The translations under genes were made by a program, and so were the position numbers. A stretch of 63,831 nt of DNA, the filler included, from a bacterium (lineage in GTDB: Bacteria; UBP15; UBA6099; JAJRTR01), in the NCBI GenBank assembly GCA_024278215.1. It is 5 parts of 5 records of this genome, joined end to end, with 100 filler letters (N's around TTAATTAATTAA, not from the genome) between each part and the next. Parts side by side here need not be neighbours in the genome. Positions count along the whole stretch, not along the records: positions 31,367 to 44,413 come from JAJRTR010000060.1; 4 more parts are not named here. One strand, given 5' to 3'. Position 1 is the stretch's first letter. Each line of letters starts with the position of its first letter. Under the pieces are notes generated by a model. It saw only the letters and a program-made list of their open reading frames with translations, was not told where the DNA came from and did not search any database. Below, one piece after another: positions 31,822-49,412 of the stretch.

Positions 31822-31847
31822 GTGTGCGGGGGAGCACAGAACGAACC

Positions 31848-32447
31848 TCATCCGAGCACGGCGCGCCACCTTTCAATATTTCTCAACTTTGTGCAGACGG
31901 CATCGGGTGTGATGCCGCGCCCGACGAGTAGTGCGGCTATCGTTTCTATGTCATGTTCACGCGACTGAAGTTCCGGGGACACGACGCAGATTTTGAAACC
32001 GGCTTCCTTCAACATATCGCAATCCGGTTTTTCAAGTGGAAACTCCGTAAAGCAGTCGACCCACACCCACTGCGCGAGTCCCCGTGCCGCCATCACTGTT
32101 TCGATGCTTTCATACTCGGAATACCTTACCGCCTGCCGGGTTTGCTCTTCCGCACCGAGCCGCGCTATCATCGGGAACGACGAATCGAGAAAAAAGAAAT
32201 TCTCGATACTGTACTCTTTGAGGAGTTCCAGCGTGCGGAATTCGATCCCCTCGCTTTTTACATTTATTATCATTGTGCCGTGCCTGTATTGTTCAAGATA
32301 GAGTGAAAAATCCACACCTCCAAGAAAAGGGTCATGGTTGAGAATCAGGCGTTTGCCGTAAGCCCTGAGGTCGAGTTCGACCCCGAACGACACCGGCACG
32401 TTTTTCAACTCATCAATTGTGTTTATCCTGTGAGCTATGAATTCCAT
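31848..32447 (-). CDS. GDPD-like phosphodiesterase-fold protein
   Basis: IAHRIN, GVELDLR, LNHDP, INVKSEG, WVWVDCF, VSPELQ. Confidence 0.7.
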   Translation of the reverse strand: MEFIAHRINTIDELKNVPVSFGVELDLRAYGKRLILNHDPFLGGVDFSLYLEQYRHGTMIINVKSEGIEFRTLELLKEYSIENFFFLDSSFPMIARLGAEEQTRQAVRYSEYESIETVMAARGLAQWVWVDCFTEFPLEKPDCDMLKEAGFKICVVSPELQSREHDIETIAALLVGRGITPDAVCTKLRNIERWRAVLG

Positions 32448-33147
32448 GTTTTATATCATGTTTCAATCGGACACTGAAATCAAATGTTCTTTTGATGAAT
32501 TTCCATTTTGCGGGCAGGCCGGTGTTCCATGTCGAATGTCCGTGCCGCCTGCCGGGGAAAACAACGGGAAACCTGATGACAGAAAGATGGAGTTTTCTGG
32601 CCATATAAAAAGCGTACAGGTCGAGAGAGAAATCATTGGGCGGGTTCTCCCATCTCGCGAAGAAACTTCTGTGGAATACATTCGGCTGTGCATTTATATC
32701 CCACAGGGTTACACCGAGATAAATAGTTTCGAAAGCGCTCATTCCGAATGTGAATATGTTGTCGGCGAGAGGCCTGCCGCGCCGTGCTCCCTTTACGAAG
32801 ATGTTCCGGGCATCGCCTCTCGATTCGATGATTTCGAGCGCTTTCAGCGTGTCGCCGGGGTCTGTCTGGAGATCTGCGTGAGTCCATGCGAGAAACTCAC
32901 CTTCAGCCTCCTTTAAACCGGAGATTATTCCGAAACCATAGCCCCTGTTTTCCTTCAAATGTACGATCTTGAGAAAAGGAAAGTAGGGGGCCAGGTGTGT
33001 GAGAACTTCGCCGCTGTCGTCCGTCGAGCCGTTTTCCACAATTATCATTTCGACGTCATTCCTCCGCAGGTTTTTCCCAAAGTCACTTATAAGCAACGGT
33101 ATGTTTCGCGACTCATTGTAACATGGTATAACAATGGAAAGTTTCAC
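32413..33147 (-). CDS. Glycosyltransferase family 2
   Basis: SIVIPCYNE, VENGSTD, NRGYG, WTHADLQ. Confidence 0.92.
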   Translation of the reverse strand: MKLSIVIPCYNESRNIPLLISDFGKNLRRNDVEMIIVENGSTDDSGEVLTHLAPYFPFLKIVHLKENRGYGFGIISGLKEAEGEFLAWTHADLQTDPGDTLKALEIIESRGDARNIFVKGARRGRPLADNIFTFGMSAFETIYLGVTLWDINAQPNVFHRSFFARWENPPNDFSLDLYAFYMARKLHLSVIRFPVVFPGRRHGHSTWNTGLPAKWKFIKRTFDFSVRLKHDIKHGIHSSQDKHN

Positions 33148-33162
33148 CGGACGGCTCCGCTT

Positions 33163-34797
33163 CTATTCGTATTTCTGAGAAAAACTCGAGTATTTCGCCG
33201 ATAGATCGTCCACAGCGCCCGGAGAAACCAGTGGGTCCGTCTCGAGGCGGTAGGGGTGGCGGAGACACTTATGGAAATAACTCTGCCAGTATGTATATGT
33301 TTTCAAATCGTCCGGGGTGCCCCAGCACACATAGTGGTCGACGTCGAACACTTTCACATTATAGCCCATCCCGGCCAGTTCGCCGGCGAGACTGTCGATA
33401 TAGAGTTCGCCGTTCACCCGGATGTTCTTAGACACAATGCGCTCATAGCCGTCGATGAAGAGACTTGCCGAGGAAAAATAAAAAGCGCCGATGAGCGCGT
33501 GATCTTCGAGCGGCTTGCCGGAGATCGGTTTTTTGACCGAAACGGTCGCCGCGCGGCCCGGTTCGGCAAGGACGGCCCAGCCATACATTCCGGGATCGCG
33601 CATCACACATGGATTCCCCCGGAACGTCCATATTACAACATCTGTGTCGCCGCTGCTGATAAGAGACAAAAACTTTGCGTTGTTCCAGATCATACCATTA
33701 TCACAGGCTGATATGAAGATCGGCTCATCGGGGGCTATCCCTTCCAGTCCCAGCCGGACTGTGGTCGCCTGGCCGTCTGTAACACTGTCCAGCACAACAG
33801 CCCGCGCGCCGGGATATTCATTATGTATTTCGCACGGCAGGTCGAATGATTCCCCGTGCTCACGCAAGTATACGAATACCACCCGATCCGCCCGGGGAGC
33901 GCAGGCAGCCGCCTGGAGAAACATCGGTTTCCCGCTTACGGCAACAAGTGGTTTCGGGATGTCGTAGTCAATAGCGAACCTTGCACCTTTCCCTGCGATC
34001 GGCATCAGCATCGTTCCCCGGATTTTCCCGCGCTTCCGCGGTTTGACAGCCTCCCGGAAGTAATTCGACCACGCGGTGTATTCCGCAATATCCCGTGGTG
34101 TTCCCCACTGCAGCATGTGCTGTATTTCGTAGACGGAGACCCTGAGCCCGGCGGCGGCGAGAAGGTTGTACACCATACTTACATAGTATTCACCTTTTAC
34201 CTGCACATTCAGTTCCATCAAACGGGGGAAGAACCTGCGGACATATTCCCCTTTCCTGAAATAGTATGTTCCATTCGATGCGAATTCACTCAACCTGTCG
34301 TTCGTGAAAGGTTTTTTCTCCTGTATCTCGATCATCCATTGCCGCTCATCGCGGATAAACGCATAGTTGGAGGGATGCAGCATGTGTGGATGGAATCCCC
34401 GATAGGCCGGGATTGCGCCGTCGGCATTTCTTCCGCGGGTGTGATCGAGGAAATCCCGGTAGTTCCAGAAAGTCCCGAAGTCGCAATAATTCACGATCAC
34501 TTCATCGTCATGTACTAGGTCCGGGAACCGGCATACCGAATAGACGGGGCCTTTCTTGTGGGGAGGCGTTCCGACTATGACGCCGGCGGGAGCGATACGG
34601 CGCAGAACACTTTCCAGACCCGAATCCGCCAGGTGATCGCTGTTGCATATAAACAGGAAATCGGATTCTCCCGGAAAGAGGTTCACCACATGCTCGATCA
34701 TCGGCATGTCATCGACTTCGATCAATGGTTTGGGAACCATGCAGCCGGATTCGACAAAACGGCTTCCGGCTCCGGCCATCGGGATAATTATCTGCAT
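33163..34797 (-). CDS. Two-domain sugar nucleotidyltransferase-like protein
   Basis: Two copies of P(M/I)AGxGxRF...PKPL...WGTPxD. Confidence 0.85.
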   Translation of the reverse strand: MQIIIPMAGAGSRFVESGCMVPKPLIEVDDMPMIEHVVNLFPGESDFLFICNSDHLADSGLESVLRRIAPAGVIVGTPPHKKGPVYSVCRFPDLVHDDEVIVNYCDFGTFWNYRDFLDHTRGRNADGAIPAYRGFHPHMLHPSNYAFIRDERQWMIEIQEKKPFTNDRLSEFASNGTYYFRKGEYVRRFFPRLMELNVQVKGEYYVSMVYNLLAAAGLRVSVYEIQHMLQWGTPRDIAEYTAWSNYFREAVKPRKRGKIRGTMLMPIAGKGARFAIDYDIPKPLVAVSGKPMFLQAAACAPRADRVVFVYLREHGESFDLPCEIHNEYPGARAVVLDSVTDGQATTVRLGLEGIAPDEPIFISACDNGMIWNNAKFLSLISSGDTDVVIWTFRGNPCVMRDPGMYGWAVLAEPGRAATVSVKKPISGKPLEDHALIGAFYFSSASLFIDGYERIVSKNIRVNGELYIDSLAGELAGMGYNVKVFDVDHYVCWGTPDDLKTYTYWQSYFHKCLRHPYRLETDPLVSPGAVDDLSAKYSSFSQKYE

Positions 34798-34814
34798 CGG
34801 CGCTTGCCCTCATT

Positions 34815-35921
34815 TTATATATCGCGGCGGTGTTTCTCGGCTTCCCAACCGCCCAGATACATTATCTCATCTTCCCGCAGCGGCTTCATCTTCTGTCCTT
34901 TGCCCGCCAGAACAAGAAGATGAAATTTCAGAATGGACTCCATGTCGCGGACCGCCCGCATGTTCGTTGCGACAAAAAAAATGCGGCCTCGATAGATCAC
35001 GGTCCGGGGGGGCTCGCCGTATTTATCAAGATAGGCTTTTAAAACATCATAGTCGTCGAGACTTTCAATATTTAAAGGCATGAAGCCGTTGTATACCACT
35101 GTGTCCGGACGAAAAGGCGGCTCGTATAGTAATTCCGGATGAGCCGCTGCAATGCGCAATAGGCCCGCGTCCGCCGCCTCACCGCAAACGTACTGTGTCC
35201 CCGATACTTCATTTACATACCCGGACACAGCATTTGTTATTCTGAATCTCTCCGTCGTTATTCCGGAAGCGGATTCAAGAGCGGTTGCGACATAGTCGGT
35301 GGTTTCAATCACATCCGAAATGTCTGATCCGGAAACGATAAGGCCGTGGTTCTCCAGAAAAACCACAAGATGTTCGCCGGCTGCATCGACACCACGCTTT
35401 TTTATTTCCCTGATCACAGCATGTGCAAGCTCGATTCCGGGGGTATGATATTCCACGAGAACAGCGTCCGGGAAAGTTGCGCCCAGGACCTCCCTCCATC
35501 CGTCCCGCGAAGCTACCGCTGTAGCAGTCAGGGGATGCGTGTGCAGAACACATTTGCCGAGAACCGAGTGCATGAATGTTTCGATAGAGGAACGCAGCGA
35601 GCCGGACACAGCCACTCGCTCCAGAGCCGATACCGCGAATCGCTCGAAGTCTTTCCTGTCGGGATGTTTCGACAACATAAACTCGTCAAGCATTTCTATC
35701 AGAAGTTCGTAATGCACTTCGGCCAGTCCACAGCCGGGCGCAACATCACCAAGAGAAAAACCTGACGCTGTGATAATCATAAGCCCCGCTTGCGTTTTCA
35801 CGGAAGCATTGCCGCCGCCCGCCTGGACCAGGTCGAATCTTTCACCGGCGAATCTTGACATTCGCGTCAATTCATCAATAGCTGTTTCATTGATATTCTT
35901 CATTATGCTATTTGGCATCAC
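34815..35921 (-). CDS. Class II aldolase/adducin family protein
   Basis: QAGGGNASVK, SIETFMH, LHTHP, LENHGL. Confidence 0.85.
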   Translation of the reverse strand: MMPNSIMKNINETAIDELTRMSRFAGERFDLVQAGGGNASVKTQAGLMIITASGFSLGDVAPGCGLAEVHYELLIEMLDEFMLSKHPDRKDFERFAVSALERVAVSGSLRSSIETFMHSVLGKCVLHTHPLTATAVASRDGWREVLGATFPDAVLVEYHTPGIELAHAVIREIKKRGVDAAGEHLVVFLENHGLIVSGSDISDVIETTDYVATALESASGITTERFRITNAVSGYVNEVSGTQYVCGEAADAGLLRIAAAHPELLYEPPFRPDTVVYNGFMPLNIESLDDYDVLKAYLDKYGEPPRTVIYRGRIFFVATNMRAVRDMESILKFHLLVLAGKGQKMKPLREDEIMYLGGWEAEKHRRDI

Positions 35922-36066
35922 TCCGAAAATATATTAACAGATGCGGGAAATCATGTAAAATATCAGTGCTATGTCCTTATCCCGCTGTAAGCGACAACAT
36001 ATCGTCGCAAAAAAGTTGCGAACACCGGTGCGGTCGGTCTGCGCGTTAAGATACGGAGAATAAACA

Positions 36067-37071
36067 TTGATGAACATATTTATATTAGTTATATCGTTTG
36101 TTCTGACGTTTACCGTAGCGTTTCTCTCTTCGAGGTCTTTAAACGTCCGTGCCCGAGCTGTAATATTCGCCGTCTATTTTTTCTTGTATGTACTGTTTTT
36201 TCCGGTCTTCCTGTGGTTGCCGGTATATTTTACGGTCGATTTCTCGAAAAAAGTGGCATACCCCGAAGGATTCAAGGACGGAATATACTTCAATCGTGTC
36301 AATGAAAGCAGACTTCTCCCGATCAACAAGGATGGGCTGATCGCCGACATGGACTACAAGCCCGGCGCGTCAGGCAAGTGCCGGATAGTGATTATCGGAG
36401 ACTCTTTCGCCGCAGGATATGGACTGAAGTTCAAGGATACTCTGGGGGCGTATCTCCAGAACGATCTTGGGAGCGGATACCAGGTGATAAATGGCGCTTT
36501 CTTCGGAACCAATACTGAAATGCAGGTTGATTACTTCTGCAACCACCTGCTCAAATATAAGCCTGAGATCGTGATCATACGGCACCGGATGGACGATGTG
36601 ATGCCGCTGGCGGAGAAATATTATCTCGAACGGACAGGCGACGTTATCAGGAAATACGCACCGCACTGGCCGCCCGCAATCAGGAACCGGTTTTTCAGAT
36701 TCGAGATGCTTCTCATCCGTGAAAGGTTCTGGAGCTACTACCGCGCCAATACCCGGAAAGTCATCAAGGAAAACATGCTGGACTTTTTCGATCGACTGAA
36801 CAACTGCACATCCGCGGAAGGCATACGTGTGTTGTTGATAAGCGATAAATGCCGCCGGGGATACGAGGCGGTCTGCGAGGCTGCGGGAGTGGAAGCCGCG
36901 AGTTTCGGCTGGGAAATATTAAATCCGCACGAGACGATCGATTTCTCCGCACCGGAAATGATTATCGCAGGGGACGGGCATCCGTCGGCACGTGCAAACC
37001 GTGTTCTCGCAGGCCTCATCCGCGATAAACTTCACAGCGATCACGCGAAGCCGGGGACCGGTCGCTGGTGA
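36067..37071 (+). CDS. Membrane-anchored SGNH/GDSL hydrolase
   Basis: Two N-terminal TM helices, IGDSFAAG, DGHPS. Confidence 0.85.
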   Translation: MMNIFILVISFVLTFTVAFLSSRSLNVRARAVIFAVYFFLYVLFFPVFLWLPVYFTVDFSKKVAYPEGFKDGIYFNRVNESRLLPINKDGLIADMDYKPGASGKCRIVIIGDSFAAGYGLKFKDTLGAYLQNDLGSGYQVINGAFFGTNTEMQVDYFCNHLLKYKPEIVIIRHRMDDVMPLAEKYYLERTGDVIRKYAPHWPPAIRNRFFRFEMLLIRERFWSYYRANTRKVIKENMLDFFDRLNNCTSAEGIRVLLISDKCRRGYEAVCEAAGVEAASFGWEILNPHETIDFSAPEMIIAGDGHPSARANRVLAGLIRDKLHSDHAKPGTGRW

Positions 37072-37195
37072 GCAGCCTCAATACTGCTTAGTTTATACCC
37101 CACGATAGGCGGGACGCCTGTCGCAGCGGTGATAGTACAGCAGAAAGTAGAACAGGCATCCCTCCTGTTTCTTCGTACAACTTTAAATCTGCGGG

Positions 37196-38503
37196 TTACC
37201 GGCTTCTGTTTTTGTCCGGCGGCGGGCGCATCAGTTCGTTCGAGACAGTATCTATGAAGTTGAGGGCACCGCTGAAGCCAAGGTAAGGCGAGTCGGACAG
37301 CGCGTGCCTGTGATAGTTCGTAAAGCCGAATGGCACGGAGACGCAGGTACCGGGAGGACTGTTGATGTAGTTGCGCAGCATGTCTTCGGCAATGATAATA
37401 TCGCAACCGTCGCGGAAAGCTTCCGAGGTGACTTGCACTATCTCGCCGGGCTTAAGATTGAAACGGCAGGGTATCCCGTCCCGAACAAGTGATTTAGGCA
37501 GGGGTGTCAGGTGTTTTTCCTGAGCTGTGGCGATCATCGCAAGCGGCCTGCAGCCCAACTCGATAAAGAAATCACGCACAGGTTCCATCATGTGGGGGTC
37601 GCCGCCGAAGAAAAAGCGTCGGCCAAGAAATATTTTGTTTATTATCCACTTCATGCCGGGCAGCACACGGGCGAGCTCGGACTCGGAATATGCAGCCGCC
37701 TGCTCTTCGAGTCCGAGGGCCGCGCCGATTTCTTCAAGCCAGCGGACAGTACCGTGAAAGCCGAAAGGGAGACCTGTTTCTATAAGTTTAGCGCCGGTTC
37801 GGGAGGCGATAATTCGCGCGGCTTCCCTGGCGTGTGGAAGAGATATGATAACACCGGCGCTCCCCGCCCGACGCAGATGGGAAAGCGGTCGTCCGCTGAG
37901 CCAGATCGATACGGGATCGAGCGACAACCCCCGCAGCATATTCTCGATTTGCGTGATATTTGATGTATGGTCTTTCTCGTTTCTATCCATCATATAACCT
38001 ATGACGGCAACTCGCGCCGGTCCCGGGTCACCGTTCAGGTCCAGGTTCGATGCAAGTGATTTCATTGCCTGCGCATAACCGTCGAGCCAGTCCGAACTCA
38101 GTGACAGAGACGGCACTTCGAAAATCGGTTTCGACAGTTTCCTGCCCATGTCTCTCACAATCGAATCGTACTGAGTGGCGGTTATCGTAGCCATGGGCAT
38201 AGAGACATACATTAGCCCGCCGGCTTCCGGCAGCGCACAGGTTTCGTGGATGATTCTCCGTATTTTCTCCGACCTGTCGTGAACTATGCTTGTCACGTCC
38301 AGATTCCGGGGTCTTACTATTCTGTCCGGGCCGGAACAATTCAGCAGGGTCGAGTTGAGATCATGCCGTCCGTAAATAAATTCTGCCTTGAATGTGGCAC
38401 AGTCCGGACCGTCCACATACAGGTACAGGTCGGGGATTGCGTTCACCGCAAGATACAGGCCGATGATATATGAGTAGTTTATCGGTAGAGCCGCTTCTTC
38501 CAT
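37196..38503 (-). CDS. Nitrogenase component-1-like oxidoreductase subunit (paralog, not true NifD/NifK)
   Basis: VDGPDC, PFGFHGTVRWLEEIG, PYLGFSGA; most P-cluster/FeMoco ligands absent. Confidence 0.8.
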   Translation of the reverse strand: MEEAALPINYSYIIGLYLAVNAIPDLYLYVDGPDCATFKAEFIYGRHDLNSTLLNCSGPDRIVRPRNLDVTSIVHDRSEKIRRIIHETCALPEAGGLMYVSMPMATITATQYDSIVRDMGRKLSKPIFEVPSLSLSSDWLDGYAQAMKSLASNLDLNGDPGPARVAVIGYMMDRNEKDHTSNITQIENMLRGLSLDPVSIWLSGRPLSHLRRAGSAGVIISLPHAREAARIIASRTGAKLIETGLPFGFHGTVRWLEEIGAALGLEEQAAAYSESELARVLPGMKWIINKIFLGRRFFFGGDPHMMEPVRDFFIELGCRPLAMIATAQEKHLTPLPKSLVRDGIPCRFNLKPGEIVQVTSEAFRDGCDIIIAEDMLRNYINSPPGTCVSVPFGFTNYHRHALSDSPYLGFSGALNFIDTVSNELMRPPPDKNRSR

Positions 38504-38571
38504 GTTTGCCGAACGTATCCAATCCGGAAGTTTCGTAATACTTCAGCCGACCGAAGCGAAGCTTCTTTTTA

Positions 38572-41211
38572 TTACTGCAGGAACTTCCTGTACCGGCTGA
38601 AGAAAGGAACAGAGCAGGCGGCGACAAGTCTTCTTAGTGTGCGTACAGCCCCTGTGAATCCCATCTCGAAGAATTGCAGGGAGAATTGTTCTTTTCCGGC
38701 ACGCACGATACGCTGATCGAAATAGAAATCCGAATAGAAACAACTTGCCGGAGAATCGAGCATGAGCTTTTCGAGTTCCGCGGGAGTCGAGAAGGTTCCG
38801 AGGTCTTTTTCCATAATTTTTCCGCCAAGGCGGGGACTCCCGGCCCGCGCGGGGTGATAAGTCAGGTACTGAGTCCCGAAGCCGATCTCTTCGAGCATTT
38901 CCATAATCGGCACTCCCCCGGCAAGCCGCGCGTTTGAAATCATTTTCATGCCGGCGCCCTCAAACACAAACCCTAAAGTATATTTACGTGCTTCCTCCGC
39001 CAGGCGGTTCCACTCATCGAGCTGCTCTTTTTCGATTTTTTCGATCGCGTCGAGTTTCTTGTCGGGGACACCAAGTTCCCCGGCTACGGTCTCCAGCCAT
39101 TCTCGTGTGCCGCGCATTCCGTAGGGCGCGGGCGGCATGATGGTTTTCACGGGGACATCGCCGAATATCTGATTGTATATCCCGGTATATGTGTCGTCGG
39201 GATAAAAAACGGTGAGCGCGGCTGCTCGATAATTATCAAATATGCACGGGTCTATTTTCGGGATGAAAATCTCGTTCACAACAATGCCCAGTACGCCAAG
39301 AAGTGAAATGATTTCATCGAGTCCTTTTTTTTCAGGAAAGCCGATCAGGTTGACTGCAAGCGGGTTGACTTCTTTTTCGGCGAAACCGGTTTCTTTTTTG
39401 AGACTGATAAAGAATTCATGATGCGGATTGATGCTTATCGAATTCTCAGGCCCCGCGTAGAACAGGGGCACGGGACACTTTTCCCTTGCCGCCGCAATGA
39501 GGGAAGGCACATCCTCGCCATAGACCATCGGAACACAGGTATTGTTGAAAACAAGAATCCTGCTGCTGCCGATTTCGTCAATTGCATCCGATATCAGGGC
39601 CGAGAGTTTCTCGCCCGAACCCATAATGACATCCATCTCCCTGATATCTGTCGAGTATGTCTTCGAGCCGCTGTGAAACATCTCCGTATCCGGCGACATA
39701 GCAGGCGAAAGCCAGGGGTAGTTATAGGGGATAAACTCATCGGACTTGATCTGCGGTGTTGCGAAAGCGCACTCGACATCCGTGTGCATGATCTGGGTTA
39801 CGGGGATGTCGTAGACAAGCACCTGCCCCCTGTTGCGAGAAAACTGCCAGTACGCGAAAAAGCGTGCCCATTTATCGGCGCAAGAGCCCTCTATGGAAAC
39901 TACGTCCGGCCCGTTGCCTTTCGAGTCGTTCCCGGTCGTTTCCAGACATTTTCTGCGTATCGTTTCGAGCTCGTCGAGCCGGAAATCACCGAGTCTGTGC
40001 GATACCCTCTGGAGTAGCCTGACAAAAGGCGCGGTGATTCTGCCTTCATCAAGAAAAATATCGAAGTGCGCAGCGGCGATATCAGGGCTCGCGCTCCTGT
40101 CCGCCGGTCTCAGAGAAACCCTGGCCTGACCTATCAACGGCCCGGAAAAACCTATCGCCACACCGCCCCCGGATATTTCATCGACATAATCAACAGCGAA
40201 GCCCTGACCTGCAACGCCCGTTCCCCGCAGGCCCAGCAACAGAGAAAAAGCGTCATTCAGTTTTTCTTCTTCCCGCCGCAGATGCCCGACCGGCGTTGCG
40301 GCGACCATTGCCCCGGCAGTTTCGCCGGTCGTTCGCGGCTTCCTGAGGTTTCGCAGGCTCTGAAGATCATCAGGATCAATAAGATATTTCATGAAAGCCT
40401 TCTGATCCAGCGGTGACGGCAGCGGTATTTCAGACACATCAAGTCCGAGAAGTTTTTCCGCGACAGCAGCCACCTGCAAGGAGAACTCACTGGACGGGTC
40501 ATATTCAAACGCCGTGAGTCCATGGTGCCTGGCAAGAACAGGCGTTTCCGATATCGGTAGACTTCCCAGCGTCCGCGCTTCTATGAGTGAGACAAACTCA
40601 CCGGACTTCAGCTTCGGACCGCCGCCGCCCCTTTCGTTCACCACAACTCCCGCCAGCGCAACTCCATTCACACTGTATCTCAAAACCGCTTTTGCTATAT
40701 TATTCGCCGCATAGTACGACATCTCGTCCTCGGCTATCACAATGACTACTTTATTACCGAAGCCCTTCCGCAGTGGTGCCGCGAATCCACCGCAGACTAC
40801 ATCGCCCAGAACATCAAAAACGACAACGTCGAATTTCCCACTCTCCATGACATTCCACTTCTCGAGATATTCCATCACCCTGGCTATACCTCTGCCGCCG
40901 CAGCCGATGCCCGCCTCCGGGCCTCCGGCCTCGATACACTTGATCCCCAGACGGCCCTTGTTGAACACCGACCCCGCCTCACGGTCATTGTCCGCGTTGG
41001 ATATCCAACTCATTACAGTATTCAGATCATCCATGTTCTCCAGCAGGATCAGTGTCGAGTCGCTCTTGGGATCGCATCCAACATGCAGCACCTTCAGGCC
41101 CTTCGTGGCATAATACGCACTGAGATTGGCGGCCAGTGTCGATTTGCCCACTCCGCCTTTCCCGAAAACTACTATGTGGTTCGGTGCTTTTTTCCCCACA
41201 GCTACTCGCAT
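38572..41211 (-). CDS. NifH-like ATPase/Fe protein fused to a nitrogenase component-1-like domain
   Basis: GKGGVGKST, GCDPKSDST, EAGGPEAGIGCGGRG, DVLGDVVCGGFA; then HTDVEC, STDIREMDVIMGSGEKL, NTCVPMVYGED, VNLIGF, PYGMRGT..WL. Confidence 0.88.
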   Translation of the reverse strand: MRVAVGKKAPNHIVVFGKGGVGKSTLAANLSAYYATKGLKVLHVGCDPKSDSTLILLENMDDLNTVMSWISNADNDREAGSVFNKGRLGIKCIEAGGPEAGIGCGGRGIARVMEYLEKWNVMESGKFDVVVFDVLGDVVCGGFAAPLRKGFGNKVVIVIAEDEMSYYAANNIAKAVLRYSVNGVALAGVVVNERGGGGPKLKSGEFVSLIEARTLGSLPISETPVLARHHGLTAFEYDPSSEFSLQVAAVAEKLLGLDVSEIPLPSPLDQKAFMKYLIDPDDLQSLRNLRKPRTTGETAGAMVAATPVGHLRREEEKLNDAFSLLLGLRGTGVAGQGFAVDYVDEISGGGVAIGFSGPLIGQARVSLRPADRSASPDIAAAHFDIFLDEGRITAPFVRLLQRVSHRLGDFRLDELETIRRKCLETTGNDSKGNGPDVVSIEGSCADKWARFFAYWQFSRNRGQVLVYDIPVTQIMHTDVECAFATPQIKSDEFIPYNYPWLSPAMSPDTEMFHSGSKTYSTDIREMDVIMGSGEKLSALISDAIDEIGSSRILVFNNTCVPMVYGEDVPSLIAAAREKCPVPLFYAGPENSISINPHHEFFISLKKETGFAEKEVNPLAVNLIGFPEKKGLDEIISLLGVLGIVVNEIFIPKIDPCIFDNYRAAALTVFYPDDTYTGIYNQIFGDVPVKTIMPPAPYGMRGTREWLETVAGELGVPDKKLDAIEKIEKEQLDEWNRLAEEARKYTLGFVFEGAGMKMISNARLAGGVPIMEMLEEIGFGTQYLTYHPARAGSPRLGGKIMEKDLGTFSTPAELEKLMLDSPASCFYSDFYFDQRIVRAGKEQFSLQFFEMGFTGAVRTLRRLVAACSVPFFSRYRKFLQ

Positions 41212-41270
41212 TCATTCCAATATTGGCGCTGGAGATTCCAGTTCGTACTTCCTGTGCCTGAATCACTTAT

Positions 41271-41299
41271 TAGCCCGCATTGGTGAAATATGCGGGTTA
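41271..41299 (-). repeat. Short palindromic repeat
   Basis: Reverse complement TAACCCGCATATTTCACCAATGCGGGCTA. Confidence 0.8.
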
Positions 41300-41353
41300 G
41301 AGCCGCTTGAAAAACTCTCGATCTCGCTACGAACATACTTTTTCAAGTGACTC
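41300..41353 (-). mobile_element. 54-bp internally deleted relative of the MITE
   Basis: Ends GAGCCGCTTGAAAAA...TTTTTCAAGTGACTC; internal CTCGCTACGAACATA identical to MITE sequence. Confidence 0.6.
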
Positions 41354-41465
41354 TTTATTATAACCGGTTTCGCTTGCGAAAAACCGAAAATTACTCTGAG
41401 CGAGCGAATCGACTGGAGAATCTGCCGCTTATGTGCAAATGAAACAGCCGCATGTGGCCGCTTCC

Positions 41466-43361
41466 TCACAGTCCGAACTTTTCAGAAAGATACTCACTAA
41501 AAAAATCCGTGTTCCATACGTCCATTTCGCGTGGCTTGAACCCTTCAGCGCCGACCGGGTGCAGTTCGTCTGTCCCATAGAACTCCGCATAGTTCTTCCT
41601 GATTCCGAAGCAACAGCCGTTAAGCCCACAGTCGGCGCAGGCATCAGTTTTTATCATGTCCCGGCTTCTTCCCGCCGTCTCCAGAACCCGCGCGTCCGGG
41701 AAATACACGGGGTTTCCATCGAGAATACACAGAGGGATGCCGCACATGGCTGTAAGGCCGGAGAATGGAACGCGGAGTTCGTAGCATAAGTCGAGCGCTT
41801 TTGTCAGAGGTTTTTTCAACTCGCTCATTCTTGGGATCAACCCCCTGAATATCATCGCACCGTATATGGGCGCGGCCACGGAAAATACAATTTGTGTCCT
41901 GTCGAGCGCGGCGGCAGTGAACTCGACGAATTCGGAAAGCGCCGTGTAATTGAACGAATTTATCACATGGCTGATCAAGACAAAAACGCCGTTTCTCCTG
42001 AGATTGGCAATTCCCTTCACCGTTTTATCGAAGGAGCCGGGAAGCCCGGTCAGCATATCAGATACTTCCGGTTTATGCGAGTGGAGTGAAACAAGGGCAA
42101 AATCGAGGCCGGCCTCCGCCAGAGCCTGCACCCTATCTTCCCGATGCAAAAGAACCGCATTCGTCTGGAGTCCGACTTTCCTGATATTCCCGGTCTTAAG
42201 CATCTTCACATATTCGACCAGGTTTGCGTTCAGGGTGGGTTCTCCTCCTGAAATACATACGGAACCAACTTCGTAATGGCGGAGTTCGTTGATGTATGAT
42301 TTTACTTTCGATATATCGGGGTTTTTGAAGTATGGCTCAACCCAGCAGAAAAGGCAGCGCTGATTGCATCTGTAATTTATCCTGAGCAGTACTTCCTCAA
42401 CGTATTTCTTTCCTTCTTTTTCAATAATTGCGGGCAGCACAAACTCGTTCTCTATGCCTGCAAGGTCTCGGGGCGAGTCCGGTTCAGCCGGCCACTGTTT
42501 CAAAACCGATCCTGTGAATTCCGGGGTCGGCACAACGAGCGCCCGGTCATCATGGTTGTCGAATTGAGGATGGATTCCCCGGCAGAAAAACCTCAGAAAA
42601 CAGTCTGCACACAATCCGGGTCTGCGCGGAACATTCTGCCCTGTTTCTCCTGTTATCGGCGGAAAAACGAAAAGTGAACGGAAGGTATCCATCGACCTGA
42701 ACAAACATGGGGCGGGACAGTCGCCCGGCTTGAAGTAAAGGCCCGCACCCGCCTTCACGGCCTCATCAAGCGTCTGCTGCAATATCGCTTCCATTTCTGC
42801 AATCGTCGCACAATCCTCACTGTTCACCAACTCCAGGAAAATGCTTCCCACATGCGGAAAACTATTGCCGATGAACTGCACGTGCTGATCCAGATCCATT
42901 ATCGTTTGTTTCAGGAGTGGTATGCGGATTGCTGTTTCAACACCGGCGGCCGCGGTGGACTCGATACCTTTGCGAGCCAGTTCCCAGCCTCCCGTGTATC
43001 GGGTCGCGGCATCTGAAACATCGGGGCTGCGGCTGACGTGCAGAAACATAATGTGAGTCAGACCCGAGGCAAGGATTCTTTCGGCATACGCAGGGTAGGA
43101 CATCATCAATCCGTTGGTATCAAGGCGGATGGTGCTGAAGCCGAGCCTGACCGCCTGCCTTATGTATTCGGCCAGGTGCCGACTGATCGTCGGTTCGCCG
43201 CCTGTGAACACCACGGAGTCGGTAGTCTCTCTCAACTCGCACAACCTTTGCAATATAATTTCCGGCACTATGTCTGTGGGTTCACACAGCACTTTCTTCC
43301 CGCAGAAAAAACAGTTCTGATTGCATTCAGTACATACCGTGATGATTCCCATGCCGAGCAT
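41466..43361 (-). CDS. Twin-domain radical SAM protein
   Basis: CNQNCFFC and CNQRCLFC, each followed by GGEPT and a CxxC-x5-C-xG tail; AGAGG RBS before ATG 43361. Confidence 0.9.
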   Translation of the reverse strand: MLGMGIITVCTECNQNCFFCGKKVLCEPTDIVPEIILQRLCELRETTDSVVFTGGEPTISRHLAEYIRQAVRLGFSTIRLDTNGLMMSYPAYAERILASGLTHIMFLHVSRSPDVSDAATRYTGGWELARKGIESTAAAGVETAIRIPLLKQTIMDLDQHVQFIGNSFPHVGSIFLELVNSEDCATIAEMEAILQQTLDEAVKAGAGLYFKPGDCPAPCLFRSMDTFRSLFVFPPITGETGQNVPRRPGLCADCFLRFFCRGIHPQFDNHDDRALVVPTPEFTGSVLKQWPAEPDSPRDLAGIENEFVLPAIIEKEGKKYVEEVLLRINYRCNQRCLFCWVEPYFKNPDISKVKSYINELRHYEVGSVCISGGEPTLNANLVEYVKMLKTGNIRKVGLQTNAVLLHREDRVQALAEAGLDFALVSLHSHKPEVSDMLTGLPGSFDKTVKGIANLRRNGVFVLISHVINSFNYTALSEFVEFTAAALDRTQIVFSVAAPIYGAMIFRGLIPRMSELKKPLTKALDLCYELRVPFSGLTAMCGIPLCILDGNPVYFPDARVLETAGRSRDMIKTDACADCGLNGCCFGIRKNYAEFYGTDELHPVGAEGFKPREMDVWNTDFFSEYLSEKFGL

Positions 43362-43590
43362 AATAAAACCTCTGGATATATTACCCGTTTGTGATCTATC
43401 CGTTTTTTTCATCGACGATCCTGACACCGGGAGCAAAAAGATTCACTCTTTATATCTGATTCCCGGATGATTGGCCGGCCAAACCAAACACCGGTCACTT
43501 AAATAATAATGATGCTCGAAAGAGCCTGTCTTTATCTTAATAATATGTCTCATTGCCACGCTAAGTGAACTGTATTGCGGTTAATGTGGT

Positions 43591-43619
43591 TAACTCGCAA
43601 ATTTCACAAATGCGTGTTA
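43591..43619 (+). repeat. Degenerate short palindromic repeat
   Basis: TAACTCGCAAATTTCACAAATGCGTGTTA. Confidence 0.6.
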
Positions 43620-43699
43620 AAGGTACTTCGGGACGCCGTAAACGACTGTGTGTTGTCGATAAGATGTTACGGTGAAAGTGACGTCGGGCGTCCGACGAT

Positions 43700-44413
43700 C
43701 TATTTCAGGTATTTGCGCAGGAAGGCGACCGCAATATTCCACGCCGCGGTGGAACCGCTGATCTCTTCCTCGGTGCGGCGCGCCGGGTCTGTGTAGAACA
43801 GCAGCGCGTGGCCGAGGCCGGGGAAGATGTGCAGCTCGTATTCTTTGTTATACTTGTCCAGAGCGGCGGCCATTTCTTTTGCCTGCGAAGGCGGCACGAT
43901 AGTGTCTTTTTCGCCGTAGAGCAGCAGGACAGGCGTGTTGATCAGGTTCGCATCGAGCGCGGGCGCGCGCTTCCTGAAAGCTTCGGGTTTGTCCGACGGG
44001 CCTTTCCCGTAGACTTTGACGGATAGCGGATCGGAGACGTCAAACCCGTTATCCACGAGGTATTTATACCAGGTGAATGTGTCTGTAACGCCATAAGCGC
44101 AAATTGCGGCGGCGAATCGCTGGTCGCGCTCGACGGCAAGCAGTGTGATGATGCCGCCATGGCTCGTGCCCATGATCGCGACGCGCGCCGTGTCGGCCTC
44201 GGGCAGCGACCTGAGCGCGGTGGCGGCGTTGAGCGCGTCATCCACTTCGCCATCGGCCACTTCGACTTCGCCTTCCGAGCCATCTTCGCCCCTGTAACTC
44301 GGCGCGATGATAATGTAGCCCAGTTCCGCGAGTTCGCGACATCTTTTCACCGTAAGTTCCGGTACACCACCGATGCCGCCGTGATTGAATATTACACCGG
44401 GCAGGCCACCGTA
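43700..44413 (-). CDS. Alpha/beta hydrolase (S9 peptidase-like), 5' end cut by contig edge
   Basis: YRGEDGSEG, GTSHGG nucleophile, GEKDTIVP, PGLGH. Confidence 0.85.
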   Translation of the reverse strand, partial: YGGLPGVIFNHGGIGGVPELTVKRCRELAELGYIIIAPSYRGEDGSEGEVEVADGEVDDALNAATALRSLPEADTARVAIMGTSHGGIITLLAVERDQRFAAAICAYGVTDTFTWYKYLVDNGFDVSDPLSVKVYGKGPSDKPEAFRKRAPALDANLINTPVLLLYGEKDTIVPPSQAKEMAAALDKYNKEYELHIFPGLGHALLFYTDPARRTEEEISGSTAAWNIAVAFLRKYLK

Positions 44414-44513
44414 NNNNNNNNNNNNNNNNNNNNNNNNNNNNNNNNNNNNNNNNNNNNTTAATTAATTAANNNNNNNNNNNNNNNNNNNNNNNNNNNNNNN
44501 NNNNNNNNNNNNN
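44414..44513. other. Artificial contig spacer
   Basis: N-run with TTAATTAATTAA linker. Confidence 0.97.
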
Positions 44514-45205: not shown

Positions 45206-47263
45206 CTACTTCGATGCGGTGGATTCTTCGGGATACATCGCTTGCAGGACTTCCGTAAGTTTCAGGCTTTTCAGTTTGTTGGGCCGGGGTCTGCCTTCAC
45301 GGTCGATCTCGCGCACAGTGTAGTACTCGCGGATCATGTGTTCATGGTCGGGAGTGAGTTTTTTCGCCATACGTTTCTTGTTAAGTTTTTTACCCGGCAT
45401 GATCTTTCCCATACCAAGGAAAACTTTTTTCTGATGAGGAATAATCCTGTTCATTACACTTATGGAGACATCTTTTATGAACGGGAGGTCGGGCGGTTTG
45501 AATTTAGTCGTGCTGTAAACGATGTCGTCGAGGCCGGTCGGCACGCCCTCCTCGTGGGCATGTAAAAGCCTCGCGGGAAGTTTGTCGTCATCTGCTGTAA
45601 AACCGCATAAATTATTGAACGCTCTTTGTATGAACCATGTGCGCTCGCCTATGGCGGTCAGTTCGCTTATTGACCATTCTATACCTGTAATATGTTTAAG
45701 GGCGGGCAGCAGGTTGTCTTTTACCGAGAGCGGCCAGGAGACGAACATGCACATGTTAAGCGAAGACACGAGCATGCCGAGGTCTTCGCTTCGTGCCACC
45801 ATTTCCGCTTTGCCGTCTTTCGTGAGCGGCGGGTAGGAACCGTCGAGCCCGAACTCCGGATATTTGTAGACGCCCATTTCCACGACAAGATCATTGTGTG
45901 AAATGTGGCAGGCGCCGCGCGGCGCGGTGGTGTAGGCGAGGGCGAGTCCGTGATAGGCGCGCGGGTCGTGCATCGGAACTTCCATGCCTTTCGAGTGTAT
46001 AGCGAACCGCGCTGATTCATGTCCGATTTTTTCGCTCATTCGCTTGACGCCTTCAGCCAGCATATCGCCTATCCCTTCGCGTTTCGCAATCATTTCGAGA
46101 AGTTGCAGAAGAGTTTCCGACCGGCCCCAGTCGAGCTCCATGCCGCCTGTGTCATCTTTGGAGATCAGCCCTTTTTCATAAGCTTCGGTAATGAACGCGA
46201 TGCTGCTGCCTGCCGATATAGTGTCCATACCCATATCGTTGCACAGTACATTTGCGGCGCACAGGGCTTCCAGGTCGTCGATCATGTTCATAGCGCCCAT
46301 GGCGGCAACCGTTTCATATTCCGGGCCGGGCGCTTTATCCATTTTATATTTACCGTCGGGTATCGTCACCACGCGCTTGCACTTCACCGGGCATCCGAAA
46401 CAGCCCGACGTTTTATCGAGTATCGTGTCGGCCATTGTGATGCCGTTTATTCGGTCTGAGCCGGTGCTCCAGTCCGCCACGCGCCAGTTTTTTGTGGGCA
46501 CATCGCCGACCAGCATACCCAGTTGCATCGTTCCGGCTGTTCCGAAGCGGGAGTAAGCGGTCATTGTGACATCGTCCTTGAGCGCTTTTGATATTTTTTC
46601 GCGCAACGCGGTGAATTCGCCCTTATCGAAAAGTTCGGGTCTCTTCTTGCCGTGAACAGCCACAGCTTTTAATTTTTTTGAGCCCATCACAGCGCCGAGC
46701 CCGGTACGGCCTGCGGCGTTATGAGGCGAGTCCATGATGCACGAATAAAGAACCCTGTTTTCACCGGCCGGGCCGATGCTCATCGTATAAACTTTCTTGA
46801 CTTTCTGTTCTTCCGCTATGAGTGCGGAGACTTCAGATGTCGGCTTACCCCATACAATACCCGCAGGTACTATCGAGGGTTTGCCGTCATTTATGAAAAG
46901 GTAAACAGGTTCCTGCGCCGCGCCGGTGATAACGATGCCGTCGTAACCGGCGTATTTCATATAGGGCGCGAAATAGCCGCCGCAACTCGAGGAACCGAAT
47001 CCGCCGGTGAGCGGCGACCTTGCGGCAACCTGTATGCGGCTCGAACCCGGCATCGGGGTTCCCACATAGGGACCGGTCATGAAGATTATCGGATTATCCG
47101 GGCCGAGTGGGTCCGCCTCATAAGCTTTCAGGTCGAACAGGAGTTTCGAAGCAAGCGCGACGCCGCCCAGATATTCGCGGGCGACTTCAGGTGTCAGTTC
47201 GCGGTCTTCGATCTTTCCGCCTGTCAGATCGACATATAATATTCTGCCGCAATATCCATACAT
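45206..47263 (-). CDS. Aldehyde:ferredoxin oxidoreductase (W/Mo AOR family)
   Basis: YLGG, SPLTG, IGPAGEN, AAGRTGLGAVMGSKKLKA, CFGCPVKC, GPEYET, GMDTIS, HDPR. Confidence 0.93.
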   Translation of the reverse strand: MYGYCGRILYVDLTGGKIEDRELTPEVAREYLGGVALASKLLFDLKAYEADPLGPDNPIIFMTGPYVGTPMPGSSRIQVAARSPLTGGFGSSSCGGYFAPYMKYAGYDGIVITGAAQEPVYLFINDGKPSIVPAGIVWGKPTSEVSALIAEEQKVKKVYTMSIGPAGENRVLYSCIMDSPHNAAGRTGLGAVMGSKKLKAVAVHGKKRPELFDKGEFTALREKISKALKDDVTMTAYSRFGTAGTMQLGMLVGDVPTKNWRVADWSTGSDRINGITMADTILDKTSGCFGCPVKCKRVVTIPDGKYKMDKAPGPEYETVAAMGAMNMIDDLEALCAANVLCNDMGMDTISAGSSIAFITEAYEKGLISKDDTGGMELDWGRSETLLQLLEMIAKREGIGDMLAEGVKRMSEKIGHESARFAIHSKGMEVPMHDPRAYHGLALAYTTAPRGACHISHNDLVVEMGVYKYPEFGLDGSYPPLTKDGKAEMVARSEDLGMLVSSLNMCMFVSWPLSVKDNLLPALKHITGIEWSISELTAIGERTWFIQRAFNNLCGFTADDDKLPARLLHAHEEGVPTGLDDIVYSTTKFKPPDLPFIKDVSISVMNRIIPHQKKVFLGMGKIMPGKKLNKKRMAKKLTPDHEHMIREYYTVREIDREGRPRPNKLKSLKLTEVLQAMYPEESTASK

Positions 47264-47377
47264 AACCGTGTTTCCCCTCTCAGCAAGCAGTTTGAAAAAC
47301 TGTAACACTTCAAACGGGTAAAGAATGTTGTTGAAAAGAGCAGGAGCGTATCGCTATAAAACATTGCCGGGCCGGTT

Positions 47378-49198
47378 CTATTCCCGCGTTCCTATCCTTA
47401 GAACAACAAAATCAGCATCTTCATTCTTATAGAGTTTCTCTATTTCGTCTTTGTATCTGTTTGTGATTTTCTTCAGCCTTGCCTGTCCGTTAGCCGTGGC
47501 TTCTTGATTCTTCGGAGAGAAAGGTCTTACATATAAAGCCTTATGAATCCGTTCGAGAGGGTGATTGTCTTCCTGTTTGCTTTTGACTTCGAAAAATTCA
47601 TGTTCAACAGCTTCCAGCATTTGCTCGTTGTAGACAAGATCGTATGGATGCGCGTAGGAGATCCCCATCGAGTCTGCATACCTGACAGGCACATCGAGGT
47701 CCTCTGCCATCGAGATCACAGCAACCGGAAAGTCCATTTGTTCGCCCGCCACGGCTATCTGTCCGATGAGGCTGCAATGATCAAGGAATTTCTCGCCGAT
47801 TTCCTCCAGGTCGTAATATTCGCCGTTTGCGAATTTTACACGGCTTCCTTGCCTGCCGATAATTTTCAGATACCCTTAGTGATCCAGTATACCCATATCT
47901 CCTGTGTGGAAAAAGCCGTCTTTAGAAAGCACCGAAATATTTATTGCGGGGAGATTGAGGTAGCCGGAGAAAACGCTGTCGCCCCTGACCGTGATCTCGC
48001 CGGGTTGCCCCGGAAGCACCTGTCTGCCTTCCTCGTCCAATATTTTAACTTCGAGGCCCGGTATAACCTTGCCGACAGTGCCCTGTTTCTTCCCGCCCGG
48101 CATATTTATTGATATTACAGGTGATGTTTCGCTCATTCCGTAGCCTTCGACAATTGCGAGCCCGAGTTTATTTTCAAATATATTTTCGACACAGGCCGCA
48201 AGTTTTGCCGCTCCGGAAATGCAGGTTCTTGTGTGGTCGAGGCCTGCTGCCGCCAGCGCTTTCGGGATATATTTTTCGTCGACATTCATGTCCAGCTCGA
48301 CGTATTCGCCGTTTGAAATCTGGAAGATTTTACCGCTGATAAGATCGAGAAGATTCGAGAAAGTGCGAGGCACGCCGGGCAGTATCGTCGGCCTCACAGC
48401 AGCGAGATCGAATGCGAACGTTCCTTTGCGGCAGTAGGCGAGCGTACCCCCGCTGAAAAGAACCAGATATGAGATGATTGTCTGCAATATATGCGCGGTA
48501 GGCAGGTATGCCAGGCAGATGTCGTCCCGGCGAATGTCCAATAATTCGGCACATGTTCTTGCGTTTGCCATAATATTGTTATGGCTGAGCACAGCGCCTT
48601 TAGGCTGACCGCTCATGCCGGAAGTATAAACGATTCGTGCGGGAGTATCGCCGATGATTCCCTGGATGCGCTCATCAACGGCTTCGCGGTTTATCGCCGT
48701 TTTTATAAGGGTATCGTAACGCACTATGCGCTCGTCATCTATCTCATCAGGGATTCTTCCGAACGCTACAATCCATTTAAGAGACGGCATCATTCCCGGA
48801 GGTATCATCGAGATGGTTTCGAGCCTCTGCCGGCGGTCCACGAATATAACACTTATCTCCGAGTCGTTGATTTTATGAATGATATTATCTTCATTATCGT
48901 TGCTGTAAATTCCTACCGTCGCACCGCCGCACGCCTGCACGGCGAAATCCGCAATATTCCATTCTTCTCTCGTCGAGGACAGGATGCCGGCTTTGTCTCC
49001 TGCTACAAAACCACATTCCATAAGCCCGGTTGCAAGTGAAAAAGTATCTTCAATAAGGCTGCGATACGACTTCACTATCGAATATTCACCTCTTTCGTCT
49101 TTCGACGACATCGCCGGTGCGTCACTATACAGTAATGCAGCGTTTCTTATCGCTTCTACAATGCTGACGGACTCGCACACTTTTTGAGGTAATCCCAT
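47378..49198 (-). pseudogene. Long-chain fatty acyl-CoA ligase interrupted by an in-frame TAA (47876-47878)
   Basis: YTSGMSGQPKG, EGYGMSET, FHTGDMG; reads ...LDH*GYLKIIGR... in frame to 47378 (606 codons). Confidence 0.85.
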
Positions 49199-49388: not shown

Positions 49389-49412
49389 TGCATTTGTGAA
49401 ATATACGGGTTA
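49389..49412 (-). repeat. Degenerate short palindromic repeat
   Basis: TGCATTTGTGAAATATACGGGTTA. Confidence 0.55.

Follow-up and report, generated by a model that had tools for sequence, protein, structure and literature searches.

The locus considered here raises the question of which reaction an enzyme of the nitrogenase fold carries out when its electron donor is fused to its catalytic subunit and a twin radical S-adenosylmethionine (SAM) protein is encoded beside it. It lies at positions 31367-44413 of a 63,831-nucleotide stretch of bacterial DNA (hereafter the window, by which we mean the whole stretch that was analysed), which consists of five contigs joined by four 44N + TTAATTAATTAA + 44N spacers (6975-7074, 18934-19033, 31267-31366 and 44414-44513), so that gene neighbourhoods are not readable across the joints. 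The locus corresponds to the entire 13,047-bp contig C30 of its host genome (G000; 4.55 Mb in 207 contigs, 95% complete), which belongs to a small phylum of 13 species genomes in one order. Its real context therefore amounts to just 13 kb, and the phage and aldehyde:ferredoxin oxidoreductase genes on either side of it in the window are unlinked to it.

Reading along the minus strand of C30, a hydrolase fragment cut by the contig end is followed by the twin radical SAM gene (41466-43361; gene call P0242, 631 amino acids (aa), in an open reading frame (ORF) that reaches a TTG at 43436 and would then encode 656 aa), by a NifH::module::NifD-like fusion (38572-41211, 879 aa) and by its NifK-like partner (37196-38503, 435 aa). 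After the partner come a weak plus-strand GDSL-like ORF and four further minus-strand genes. An earlier sequence-only reading had proposed three co-oriented genes for a twin radical SAM protein, a NifH::component-1 fusion and a partner subunit, with which the ORFs and Pfam domains agree, and had taken the products for an ATP-driven reductase with a tethered electron donor, a reading that is supported by the domains, the conserved fusion and the trees described below. The sequence comparisons support placing the locus among the Group VI nitrogenase-like (NFL) systems, and such a system is, with good probability, an ATP-dependent low-potential reductase that does not reduce N2.

The fusion itself is genuine. 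Pfam recognises Fer4_NifH (PF00142) at residues 12-277 of the fused protein (E 2.4e-67) and Oxidored_nitro (PF00148) at residues 515-864 (E 9.5e-18), and a search for relatives, which was limited to 483-1539 aa and so carries no information on the number of unfused forms, returned 209 proteins at E<=1e-3, with both domains present in 117 of the 120 listed. These 120 proteins (611-1094 aa) come from several phyla and from NCBI, JGI, ENA and Logan assemblies, and the named ones belong to metagenome-assembled genomes (MAGs) of Elusimicrobia (including RBG_16_66_12) and of Deltaproteobacteria/Myxococcales and to the isolate Pseudenhygromyxa. Within the host phylum a full-length fused gene of the same architecture is found in four genomes, namely the host itself and relatives at 74%, 64% and 44% identity. 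An assembly or annotation artefact, in which a nifH-like and a nifD-like gene were joined by a lost stop, could draw on the existence of split forms: two Myxococcales loci have a separate NifH-like gene overlapping the start of a 702-704-aa D-like gene, and in a fifth genome of the host order (G003) the fused gene lies in three pieces (L189:4094-7009, ORFs of 86, 192 and 595 aa) and is either decaying or mis-assembled. Set against this are the single open frame of 879 codons in the window and the recurrence of both domains, in an identical arrangement down to 44% identity and across assemblies of different origin, and we regard the lost-stop error, which the sequence-only reading had named as a possible refutation, as practically negligible.

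Other arrangements of the same domains are also encountered. On a groundwater Deltaproteobacteria contig no component-1 gene was recognised next to the NifH-like gene (271 aa), and a tandem NifH-NifH-NifD-like fusion of ~1090 aa is present in a Myxococcota MAG (L125:2627-5884) and as protein P0085. In the L125 protein PF00142 scores 542.6 bits in several stretches and is followed by PF00148, giving a whole Fe-protein dimer per chain; the tandem fusions fall outside the main Group VI set, in a group with a Thermoplasmata protein that is also fused. The supply of a whole dimer per chain by these fusions shows that selection acts on keeping the donor attached. The Elusimicrobia RBG_16_66_12 locus has two fused H::D paralogs 2 kb apart (L100:6192-7946 and L100:10001-12289), of which one contains the tether module described below and the other none.

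The NifH (Fe-protein-like) domain (40381-41178, minus strand) retains all of its nucleotide and switch motifs. It has the P-loop GKGGVGKST and the motif CDPKSDST, with Walker A at 41137-41163 and both Switch I and Switch II present, and the columns of Walker A, Switch I, the cluster loop and Switch II are invariant in an alignment with true NifH and BchL. The cysteines C104 (40900-40902) and C140 (40792-40794), equivalent to Cys97 and Cys132, are kept in all 120 fused relatives listed, so the P-loop and the two [4Fe-4S] cysteines noticed earlier both stand. In NCBIfam every named family is matched under its curated cut-off (nifH 224 bits vs. 394.35, CfbC 220.2 vs. 402, BchL 172.9 vs. 345.15 and BchX 155.2 vs. 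331.2), and the top solved-structure match is nominally MarH (177 bits), level with NifH (172-177).

For the trees, reference sequences were gathered by scanning species genomes and plasmids and were labelled by curated cut-offs, giving 5 CfbC and 11 strong NifH, to which 3 NifH, 1 BchL and 1 BchX annotated on plasmids were added. The named plasmid references derive from tblastn against plasmids, in which the other NifH-like protein of the genome retrieved 282 records at the default limit and the NifH domain of the window none at E<=1e-20. A 12-row clade could be identified as MarH, as its Telmatospirillum member (L050) matches PDB 9fmg_D at 555 bits, 9FMG being the R. rubrum methylthio-alkane reductase complex according to a figure legend in a Chem Rev 2026 article (PMC13474568). 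In a 127-row quick tree the window falls in a 15-row clade made up entirely of fused proteins (support 100), which lies inside a 40-row set with RBG_16_66_12, GWF2_62_30 and Pseudenhygromyxa (93 by the SH-like approximate likelihood ratio test, SH-aLRT), and a branch with support 99 divides the window's side from CfbC, NifH and MarH. A more careful tree of 46 rows chosen from the 127 (8 of the window's clade, 11 other Group VI, 4 CfbC, 5 MarH, 6 NifH, 2 Bch and 10 others) gives 100/98 for the window's clade and 80/85 for the Group VI set; NifH, CfbC and MarH each receive 100/99 and are each monophyletic in 100% of 200 bootstrap trees, and the branch that encloses all three (96/97) leaves the window outside.

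The genome GWF2_62_30 is named in the passage on Group VI loci of Meheust et al. 2020 (bioRxiv 10.1101/765248). Since the window groups with sequences of published genomes, the family is the published Group VI NFL, and the link to Elusimicrobia and Myxococcales paralogs that had been suspected from the sequence is borne out by the three named genomes falling on the window's side of the tree, while the clustering with a characterised family that had been considered as an alternative outcome is seen neither in the NCBIfam scores nor, as regards NifH, CfbC and MarH, in the trees. The function of Group VI is stated to be unknown, and a tetrapyrrole-related role is offered as a guess, both in that preprint and in section 7 of the Chem Rev article. 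The same genome also has a second, unfused nitrogenase-like (NflHDK-type) set on another contig (G000:C196:1050-4775; L003, L009, L011), in which a 278-aa NifH-like gene (nifH 334.6 bits, cut-off 394) is divergent from 414-aa D/E-like and 445-aa K-like genes; its NifH-like sequence lies near the base of the tree with a Myxococcales sequence and in no labelled clade.

The D-like domain (residues ~445-879, 38575-39879, minus strand) aligns with the NifD profile in hhalign at a probability of 98.9%, with HTDVEC481 on HGPVGC (Av Cys88), NNTC559 on SEC (Av Cys154) and Pro671 at the Cys275 position. The codons of C481 and C559 lie at 39769-39771 and 39535-39537, the two motifs are kept in 119/120 and 118/120 fused relatives, respectively, and C559 aligns with the Cys154 motif of NifE, MarD and NifD. 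At the Cys275 position, where the L-cluster and FeMo-co (iron-molybdenum cofactor) have a cysteine ligand, proline is invariant within the window's clade, and an extended, low-confidence NifD alignment places no Cys at Cys62 and no His at His442. The partner is covered by Oxidored_nitro at residues 15-424 (E 1.7e-39) and aligns with the NifK profile at a probability of 99.4%; its Cys153 position is Pro103 (38195-38197), as in 120/120 relatives, and its only conserved cysteine is C35 (DGPDC35, 38399-38401; 119 of 120 partner relatives). Conservation is equally high (119/120) for H47 and for D48, and C56 occurs in just 39/120. In a comparison of the partner with the D-like profile, C35 pairs with C481 at the Cys88/Cys95-type position, in a stretch of low confidence.

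Taken together, and with ligand numbering after the passages of PMC13474568 on the CfbD pair and the other clusters, these alignments suggest three cysteines (D C481, D C559 and K C35) for one interface cluster, with three of the six P-cluster positions filled. The single interface cluster proposed from the sequence is thus supported with a refinement, namely three conserved cysteines, two from D and one from K, rather than four, and the cysteines of HTDVEC, NTC and DGPDC on which it was based are real. The earlier statements that FeMo-co ligands and the genes nifB and nifE/N are missing hold equally well: nifB was not found in the 95%-complete genome, and its only four PF00148 genes are those of the two NFL systems (this pair and the C196 set), with no nifEN; no bch genes occur on the contig. 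A nitrogenase of the Nif, Vnf or Anf type was considered and rejected on the sub-cut-off nifH score, the three cysteines, the FeMo-co ligand positions, which are not conserved, and the lack of nifB and nifEN.

Comparison with known systems places the locus closest to the Group VI NflHDK proteins of Elusimicrobia, Gracilibacteria and Myxococcales. It shares with them the NifH grouping with named genomes, full ATPase motifs and two cluster cysteines, divergent D and K without FeMo-co ligands and with fewer than four of the six P-cluster cysteines, the lack of nifB, and an adjacent radical SAM gene. It differs in its host, which belongs to another phylum than the three published lineages, in its neighbours, which are a twin radical SAM and sugar-type genes and not B12- or HemN-type radical SAM genes, and in that the passages available of the published texts describe H, D and K as separate proteins whereas here H is fused to D through a folded module. 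The fusion also occurs in most relatives retrieved, including those of published genomes. No description of the H-D fusion or of the tether module was found in the literature searched, which did not include the supplements of the 2020 paper (with Supplementary Figure S6). As both occur in already published genomes, they are undescribed features of a known family and not a new family.

Among the characterised systems, CfbCD offers an ATP-dependent NifH-like reductase with a component-1-like protein that holds a simple [4Fe-4S] cluster, and the D-like domain has the two ligand positions of CfbD (Cys88 and Cys154 equivalents). CfbD is, however, homomeric with a symmetric 2+2 arrangement, whereas here two different subunits encoded by two component-1 genes would give 2+1 cysteines, and the window lies outside the CfbC clade and has no cfb context. 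The dark-operative protochlorophyllide oxidoreductase (DPOR; BchL/ChlL with BchNB/ChlNB) is alike in having a heteromeric pair, one interface [4Fe-4S] cluster bound by three cysteines and a non-Cys ligand (the last being putative here), and no complex cofactor, but in DPOR one subunit gives all three cysteines and the other an Asp, which stands at the position of NifK Cys95, whereas the pattern here is 2+1 with what seems to be a Cys at the Cys95-type position; the BchL score is also well under its cut-off, and no bch or chl genes stand on the contig. MarBHDK (PDB 9FMG, 9D9U) and IsrHDK are likewise nitrogenase-like reductases that act on small organics and have a radical SAM or NifB-like partner gene. 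MarBHDK carries P-like and L-like clusters and needs MarB, however, while the window has neither those ligand positions nor nifB and falls outside the MarH clade. The IsrHDK (Group IV-F) pattern consists of Cys at NifD 88 and NifK 70, 95 and 153, of which the K subunit of the window lacks the Cys153 equivalent; the trees held no Isr sequence. NifEN with NifH, finally, resembles the locus in combining a component-1 fold with a NifH-type ATPase, and NifE is the best solved-structure match of the D-like profile, but an L-cluster ligand, nifB and a nitrogenase for such a scaffold to serve are all missing.

The distance between the end of the NifH domain and the first D cysteine ranges from 78 to 385 aa among the 120 relatives and is 204 aa in the window. 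An AlphaFold2 model of the fusion built from a 15-sequence alignment (predicted local distance difference test, pLDDT, 73.7; predicted template modelling score, pTM, 0.55) has disorder at residues 285-313 and 424-444 with an ordered unit at 313-422 between them. The tether is thus predicted to consist of ~29 disordered residues (40273-40359, pLDDT <50), an ordered module of ~110 aa (39946-40275, pLDDT 61-85 in the full-length model) and ~21 further disordered residues (39880-39942, pLDDT <50), all on the minus strand. The module is predicted as a helix, four strands and two helices, and reaches a pLDDT of 86.1 and a pTM of 0.80 when modelled alone from seven sequences. The linker of ~170 aa reported from the sequence is therefore borne out in its length but not as a plain linker, as the AlphaFold2 model holds a folded module within it.

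When a hidden Markov model (HMM) of the module was run over all stored proteins and the ORFs of 14 loci, every match fell in a fused H::D protein, with two copies in the long forms (~1000 aa), one in medium forms and none in short forms (740-810 aa); the one extra match was the second fused paralog of the RBG_16_66_12 locus. It is absent from the split Myxococcales D-like proteins by the same HMM, and the idea that the module might be shared with the radical SAM neighbours was dropped, since the HMM matched no radical SAM protein. A single-sequence phmmer search against 1.84 billion representatives gave 6 hits, of which 3 belong to the same fused family, and the other 3, being multi-stretch matches to long proteins, are read as spurious. 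Structure searches gave no convincing known fold: Foldseek against the PDB had no match at E<=1e-3, ESM Atlas matches for the homologue P0004 stayed at template modelling (TM) scores <0.5, and among 48,161 chains compared by VIA-align the highest Z was 6.3, for Mdm12, followed by several lipid-binding proteins of the SMP/TULIP type (Z 3.5-5.1), matches that are a lead only and lie under the noise level of the tool (typical best Z 7-8).

The twin radical SAM protein has two Radical_SAM stretches in Pfam (E 1.7e-40), each half with a CX3CX2C motif (C38/C42/C45, codons at 43302-43325, and C357/C361/C364, codons at 42345-42368) with a conserved 4-Cys auxiliary motif after it. Both CX3CX2C motifs are present in 48 of 52 relatives (560-700 aa), and the auxiliary cysteines C244/C276/C279/C285 and C570/C600/C603/C609 are kept in all 52. 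With two CX3CX2C and two invariant 4-Cys motifs, the protein should carry four Fe-S clusters. A Pfam search of the locus proteins found no NifX domain of the NifB type. The top NCBIfam matches are HxsC4 (153.8 bits, cut-off 500) and HxsC (130.3, cut-off 267.9); an assignment as an HxsC/HxsC4 maturase was rejected on these scores and on the lack of an HxS-repeat ORF on C30.

Elsewhere in the same genome there are two His-Xaa-Ser (Hxs) systems (G000:C37:12274-22535 and G000:C205:2803-4629; L180 and L181), in which HxsB scores 470.8 and 499.5 against a cut-off of 370 and HxsA4 68.8 against 55; three tandem genes of ~275 aa end in HxS repeats plus Trp, and several HxsC-like radical SAM genes are present. 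The presence of Hxs and NFL systems in one genome is co-occurrence, not linkage, and no report of an Hxs-nitrogenase link was found in the literature searched.

The neighbourhood of the fused gene was surveyed in a small sample, consisting of seven loci of the window's relatives (the window, L001, L002, L177, L178, L188 and L189) and eight wider Group VI loci. A K-like gene stands directly downstream of the fusion in 6 of the 7, the exception being L189 with its fused gene in pieces. A radical SAM gene is found on the contig in five of seven (L188 has none, and L177 begins at the fused gene), as are glycan-type genes (GT2, nucleotidyltransferase, Bac_transf, Acyl_transf_3, GDSL-like). Orthology does not extend to the gene immediately upstream, as L001 and L002 have a 518-aa single radical SAM protein that is 28% identical to either twin half, and L001 has a 682-aa GDSL-like gene upstream.

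In the window the four further minus-strand genes form a co-oriented companion block (31848-35921) that is kept beside the system in the 64%-identity relative L002. By domain search it comprises a class II aldolase-like gene (34815-35921), a tandem nucleotidyltransferase gene (33163-34797) and a GT2 glycosyltransferase gene (32413-33147), followed by a gene for a 199-aa protein of no family (31848-32447). The nucleotidyltransferase is 544 aa long, with domains at 1-244 and 263-497, and scores under every curated family cut-off. L002 keeps the twin radical SAM gene (68%, cut by the contig end) at the head of an operon with the aldolase (58%), nucleotidyltransferase (72%), GT2 (70%) and 199-aa (64%) genes. 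This operon converges on HD-K, whereas in the window its counterparts run in the direction of HD-K. The retention of the set through this inversion is the best evidence that the eight genes belong together. It is uncertain whether the system includes the weak GDSL/SGNH-like ORF on the plus strand between the partner and aldolase genes (36067-37071; PF13472 26 bits against a cut-off of 32.9). The neighbourhood survey that the sequence-only reading had called for thus brings out conserved neighbours of the sugar-activating and sugar-transfer kind and not tetrapyrrole genes.

With H joined to the N terminus of D and K encoded separately directly downstream, a mechanism can be outlined by analogy with established NifH-type reductases, together with DPOR and CfbCD. 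The H domains of two chains would form a dimer with a [4Fe-4S] cluster between them; with ATP bound, this dimer would dock at the D/K interface and pass on one electron per cycle of ATP hydrolysis. The electrons would reach one [4Fe-4S]-type cluster at that interface, held by three cysteines and a non-Cys ligand, and from there an organic substrate. As each D has one H, there would be just one Fe-protein dimer in an (HD-K)2 tetramer, which the two halves would have to use by turns, and the tether module may be a substrate-binding or carrier-binding element. The reductase most likely acts with the adjacent twin radical SAM protein on a small-molecule intermediate, which seems to be tied to sugar activation and transfer by way of the aldolase-like protein, the tandem nucleotidyltransferase and GT2.

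Several observations weigh against this reading or against parts of it. The Group VI grouping is moderately supported (93 SH-aLRT in the quick tree, 80/85 in the careful one), and BchL and BchX are long branches of unsure position in both trees, in which the published placement as sister of group V is uncheckable. The mapping of K Cys35 falls in the low-confidence stretch, a rival alignment pairs NifK Cys95 with C56, and K His47 and K Asp48 are only candidates for the fourth cluster ligand. Subunit pairing, stoichiometry and docking are taken from homology alone, and no biochemical datum for any Group VI system is given in section 7 of the Chem Rev 2026 article. As for the neighbourhood, the genome G002 of the same family has HD-K on a 9.7-kb contig that lacks radical SAM and sugar genes and shows an M20 peptidase and a chemotaxis receptor as the neighbours, and the closest relative has its twin radical SAM gene on another contig, by restriction-modification genes. 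The contigs also measure no more than 4.9-14.5 kb, and the seven loci are not independent, five of them being from the small phylum of the window itself.

Among the possible substrates, we rank a sugar-linked or other small molecule handled together with the twin radical SAM protein above a tetrapyrrole, a tetrapyrrole above an Hxs-type peptide, and that in turn above cluster assembly. A tetrapyrrole reductase making a new cofactor, in which D/K would reduce a porphyrinoid C=C bond in the manner of DPOR, chlorophyllide oxidoreductase (COR) and CfbCD, is the role proposed in the Group VI passages of Meheust et al. 2020 (bioRxiv 10.1101/765248) and section 7 of PMC13474568 from phylogeny and from Elusimicrobia radical SAM neighbours with a B12 or HemN_C fusion. 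The cysteine pair of the D-like domain is precisely that of CfbD, and a hydroxymethylbilane synthase gene is present in the genome. However, neither a tetrapyrrole gene nor a B12-binding or HemN_C domain was found on the 13-kb contig of the window or at the six other loci of its relatives; such genes do occur in a Myxococcales Group VI locus. The 95%-complete genome yielded no ALAD, and the conserved neighbours are of the sugar type, so that we consider a tetrapyrrole substrate rather unlikely.

A second possibility ties the locus to the Hxs systems, as a pathway resembling the maturation of ribosomally synthesised and post-translationally modified peptides (RiPPs) in which the modification of a peptide would fall to the twin radical SAM protein and its reduction to the NFL reductase. 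That HxsC4 and HxsC are the top NCBIfam matches of both twin halves, and that the genome has two Hxs systems with their HxS-repeat genes, would fit such a scheme, but the HxsC-type scores lie far under their cut-offs, the Hxs genes are on other contigs (C37 and C205), neither an HxS-repeat ORF nor any other recognisable precursor-peptide ORF is present in the two intergenic gaps of the locus, and the tether module is without a match to peptide-recognition domains; we hold this scheme to be improbable. Still less probable, and to our mind quite remote, is metallocluster assembly, with D/K as a NifEN-like scaffold, H as a maturation ATPase and the twin radical SAM protein as a NifB-like enzyme building a complex Fe-S cofactor for another enzyme. 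This scheme can point to NifE/NifEN as the top solved structures of the D-like profile (56.8 bits, level with MarD at 55.9), to nifE as the best NCBIfam match of the D-like region (36.2 bits), and to the two radical SAM clusters and two conserved 4-Cys motifs of the twin protein, but these scores are weak, the L-cluster and FeMo-co cysteine position is the invariant proline of the window's clade, and neither a recipient enzyme nor a NifB-type NifX domain is evident.

Returning to the sugar-linked small molecule, a bolder version can be offered as a long shot. The module would be a new substrate- or carrier-holding domain that presents a hydrophobic or sugar-linked intermediate, formed by the set of twin radical SAM, aldolase-like, nucleotidyltransferase and GT2 proteins, to the D/K cluster; the eight genes would make up a pathway to a new metabolite, reduced and nucleotide-activated, and not to a tetrapyrrole, and the fusion would work as a tethered single-chain machine with one Fe-protein dimer alternating between halves.

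Of the large branches of the nitrogenase family, Group VI alone is without a known reaction, and the locus adds to it a compact case from outside the three published lineages, with three core genes and a conserved five-gene companion set. Its sugar-type neighbours mean that the tetrapyrrole guess should not be taken for granted. What was undescribed in the literature searched is that the donor is usually fused to the catalytic subunit and that many of these fusions have a private folded tether module; a naturally tethered Fe protein bears on the gating of ATP-driven electron transfer and on the engineering of simpler nitrogenase-type enzymes. There is also a practical side, as it had been suggested that the nifH domain could be a false positive in diazotroph surveys. 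More than 20 of the 120 listed relatives are named 'nitrogenase iron protein NifH' by JGI, while the NCBI curated cut-off does not take in the domain of the window; with the nifH1/nifH2 primers, 2 mismatches fall in the forward site, and a reverse site is missing from the gene at <=3 mismatches. The risk is therefore real for surveys that rely on annotation and probably does not extend to nifH1/nifH2 PCR. These fusions may likewise distort how many 'NflH only plus NflD' genomes are counted and how many nifH genes are tallied in annotated metagenomes.

The other contigs of the window hold two further gene sets that can be recorded here. Positions 25200-31266 contain a phage head-morphogenesis block with large terminase, portal, Mu F-like and capsid genes, the portal being in two ORFs (26405-26881 and 26885-28426). 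On the far side of the locus, positions 45206-57698 (contig G000:C31) encode an AMP-binding enzyme beside an aldehyde:ferredoxin oxidoreductase, together with a large flavin-FeS set of the NuoF/GltD type that comprises 1050-aa, 830-aa and 481-aa proteins with a 2Fe-2S thioredoxin-like ferredoxin, which together look like an electron-bifurcating module.

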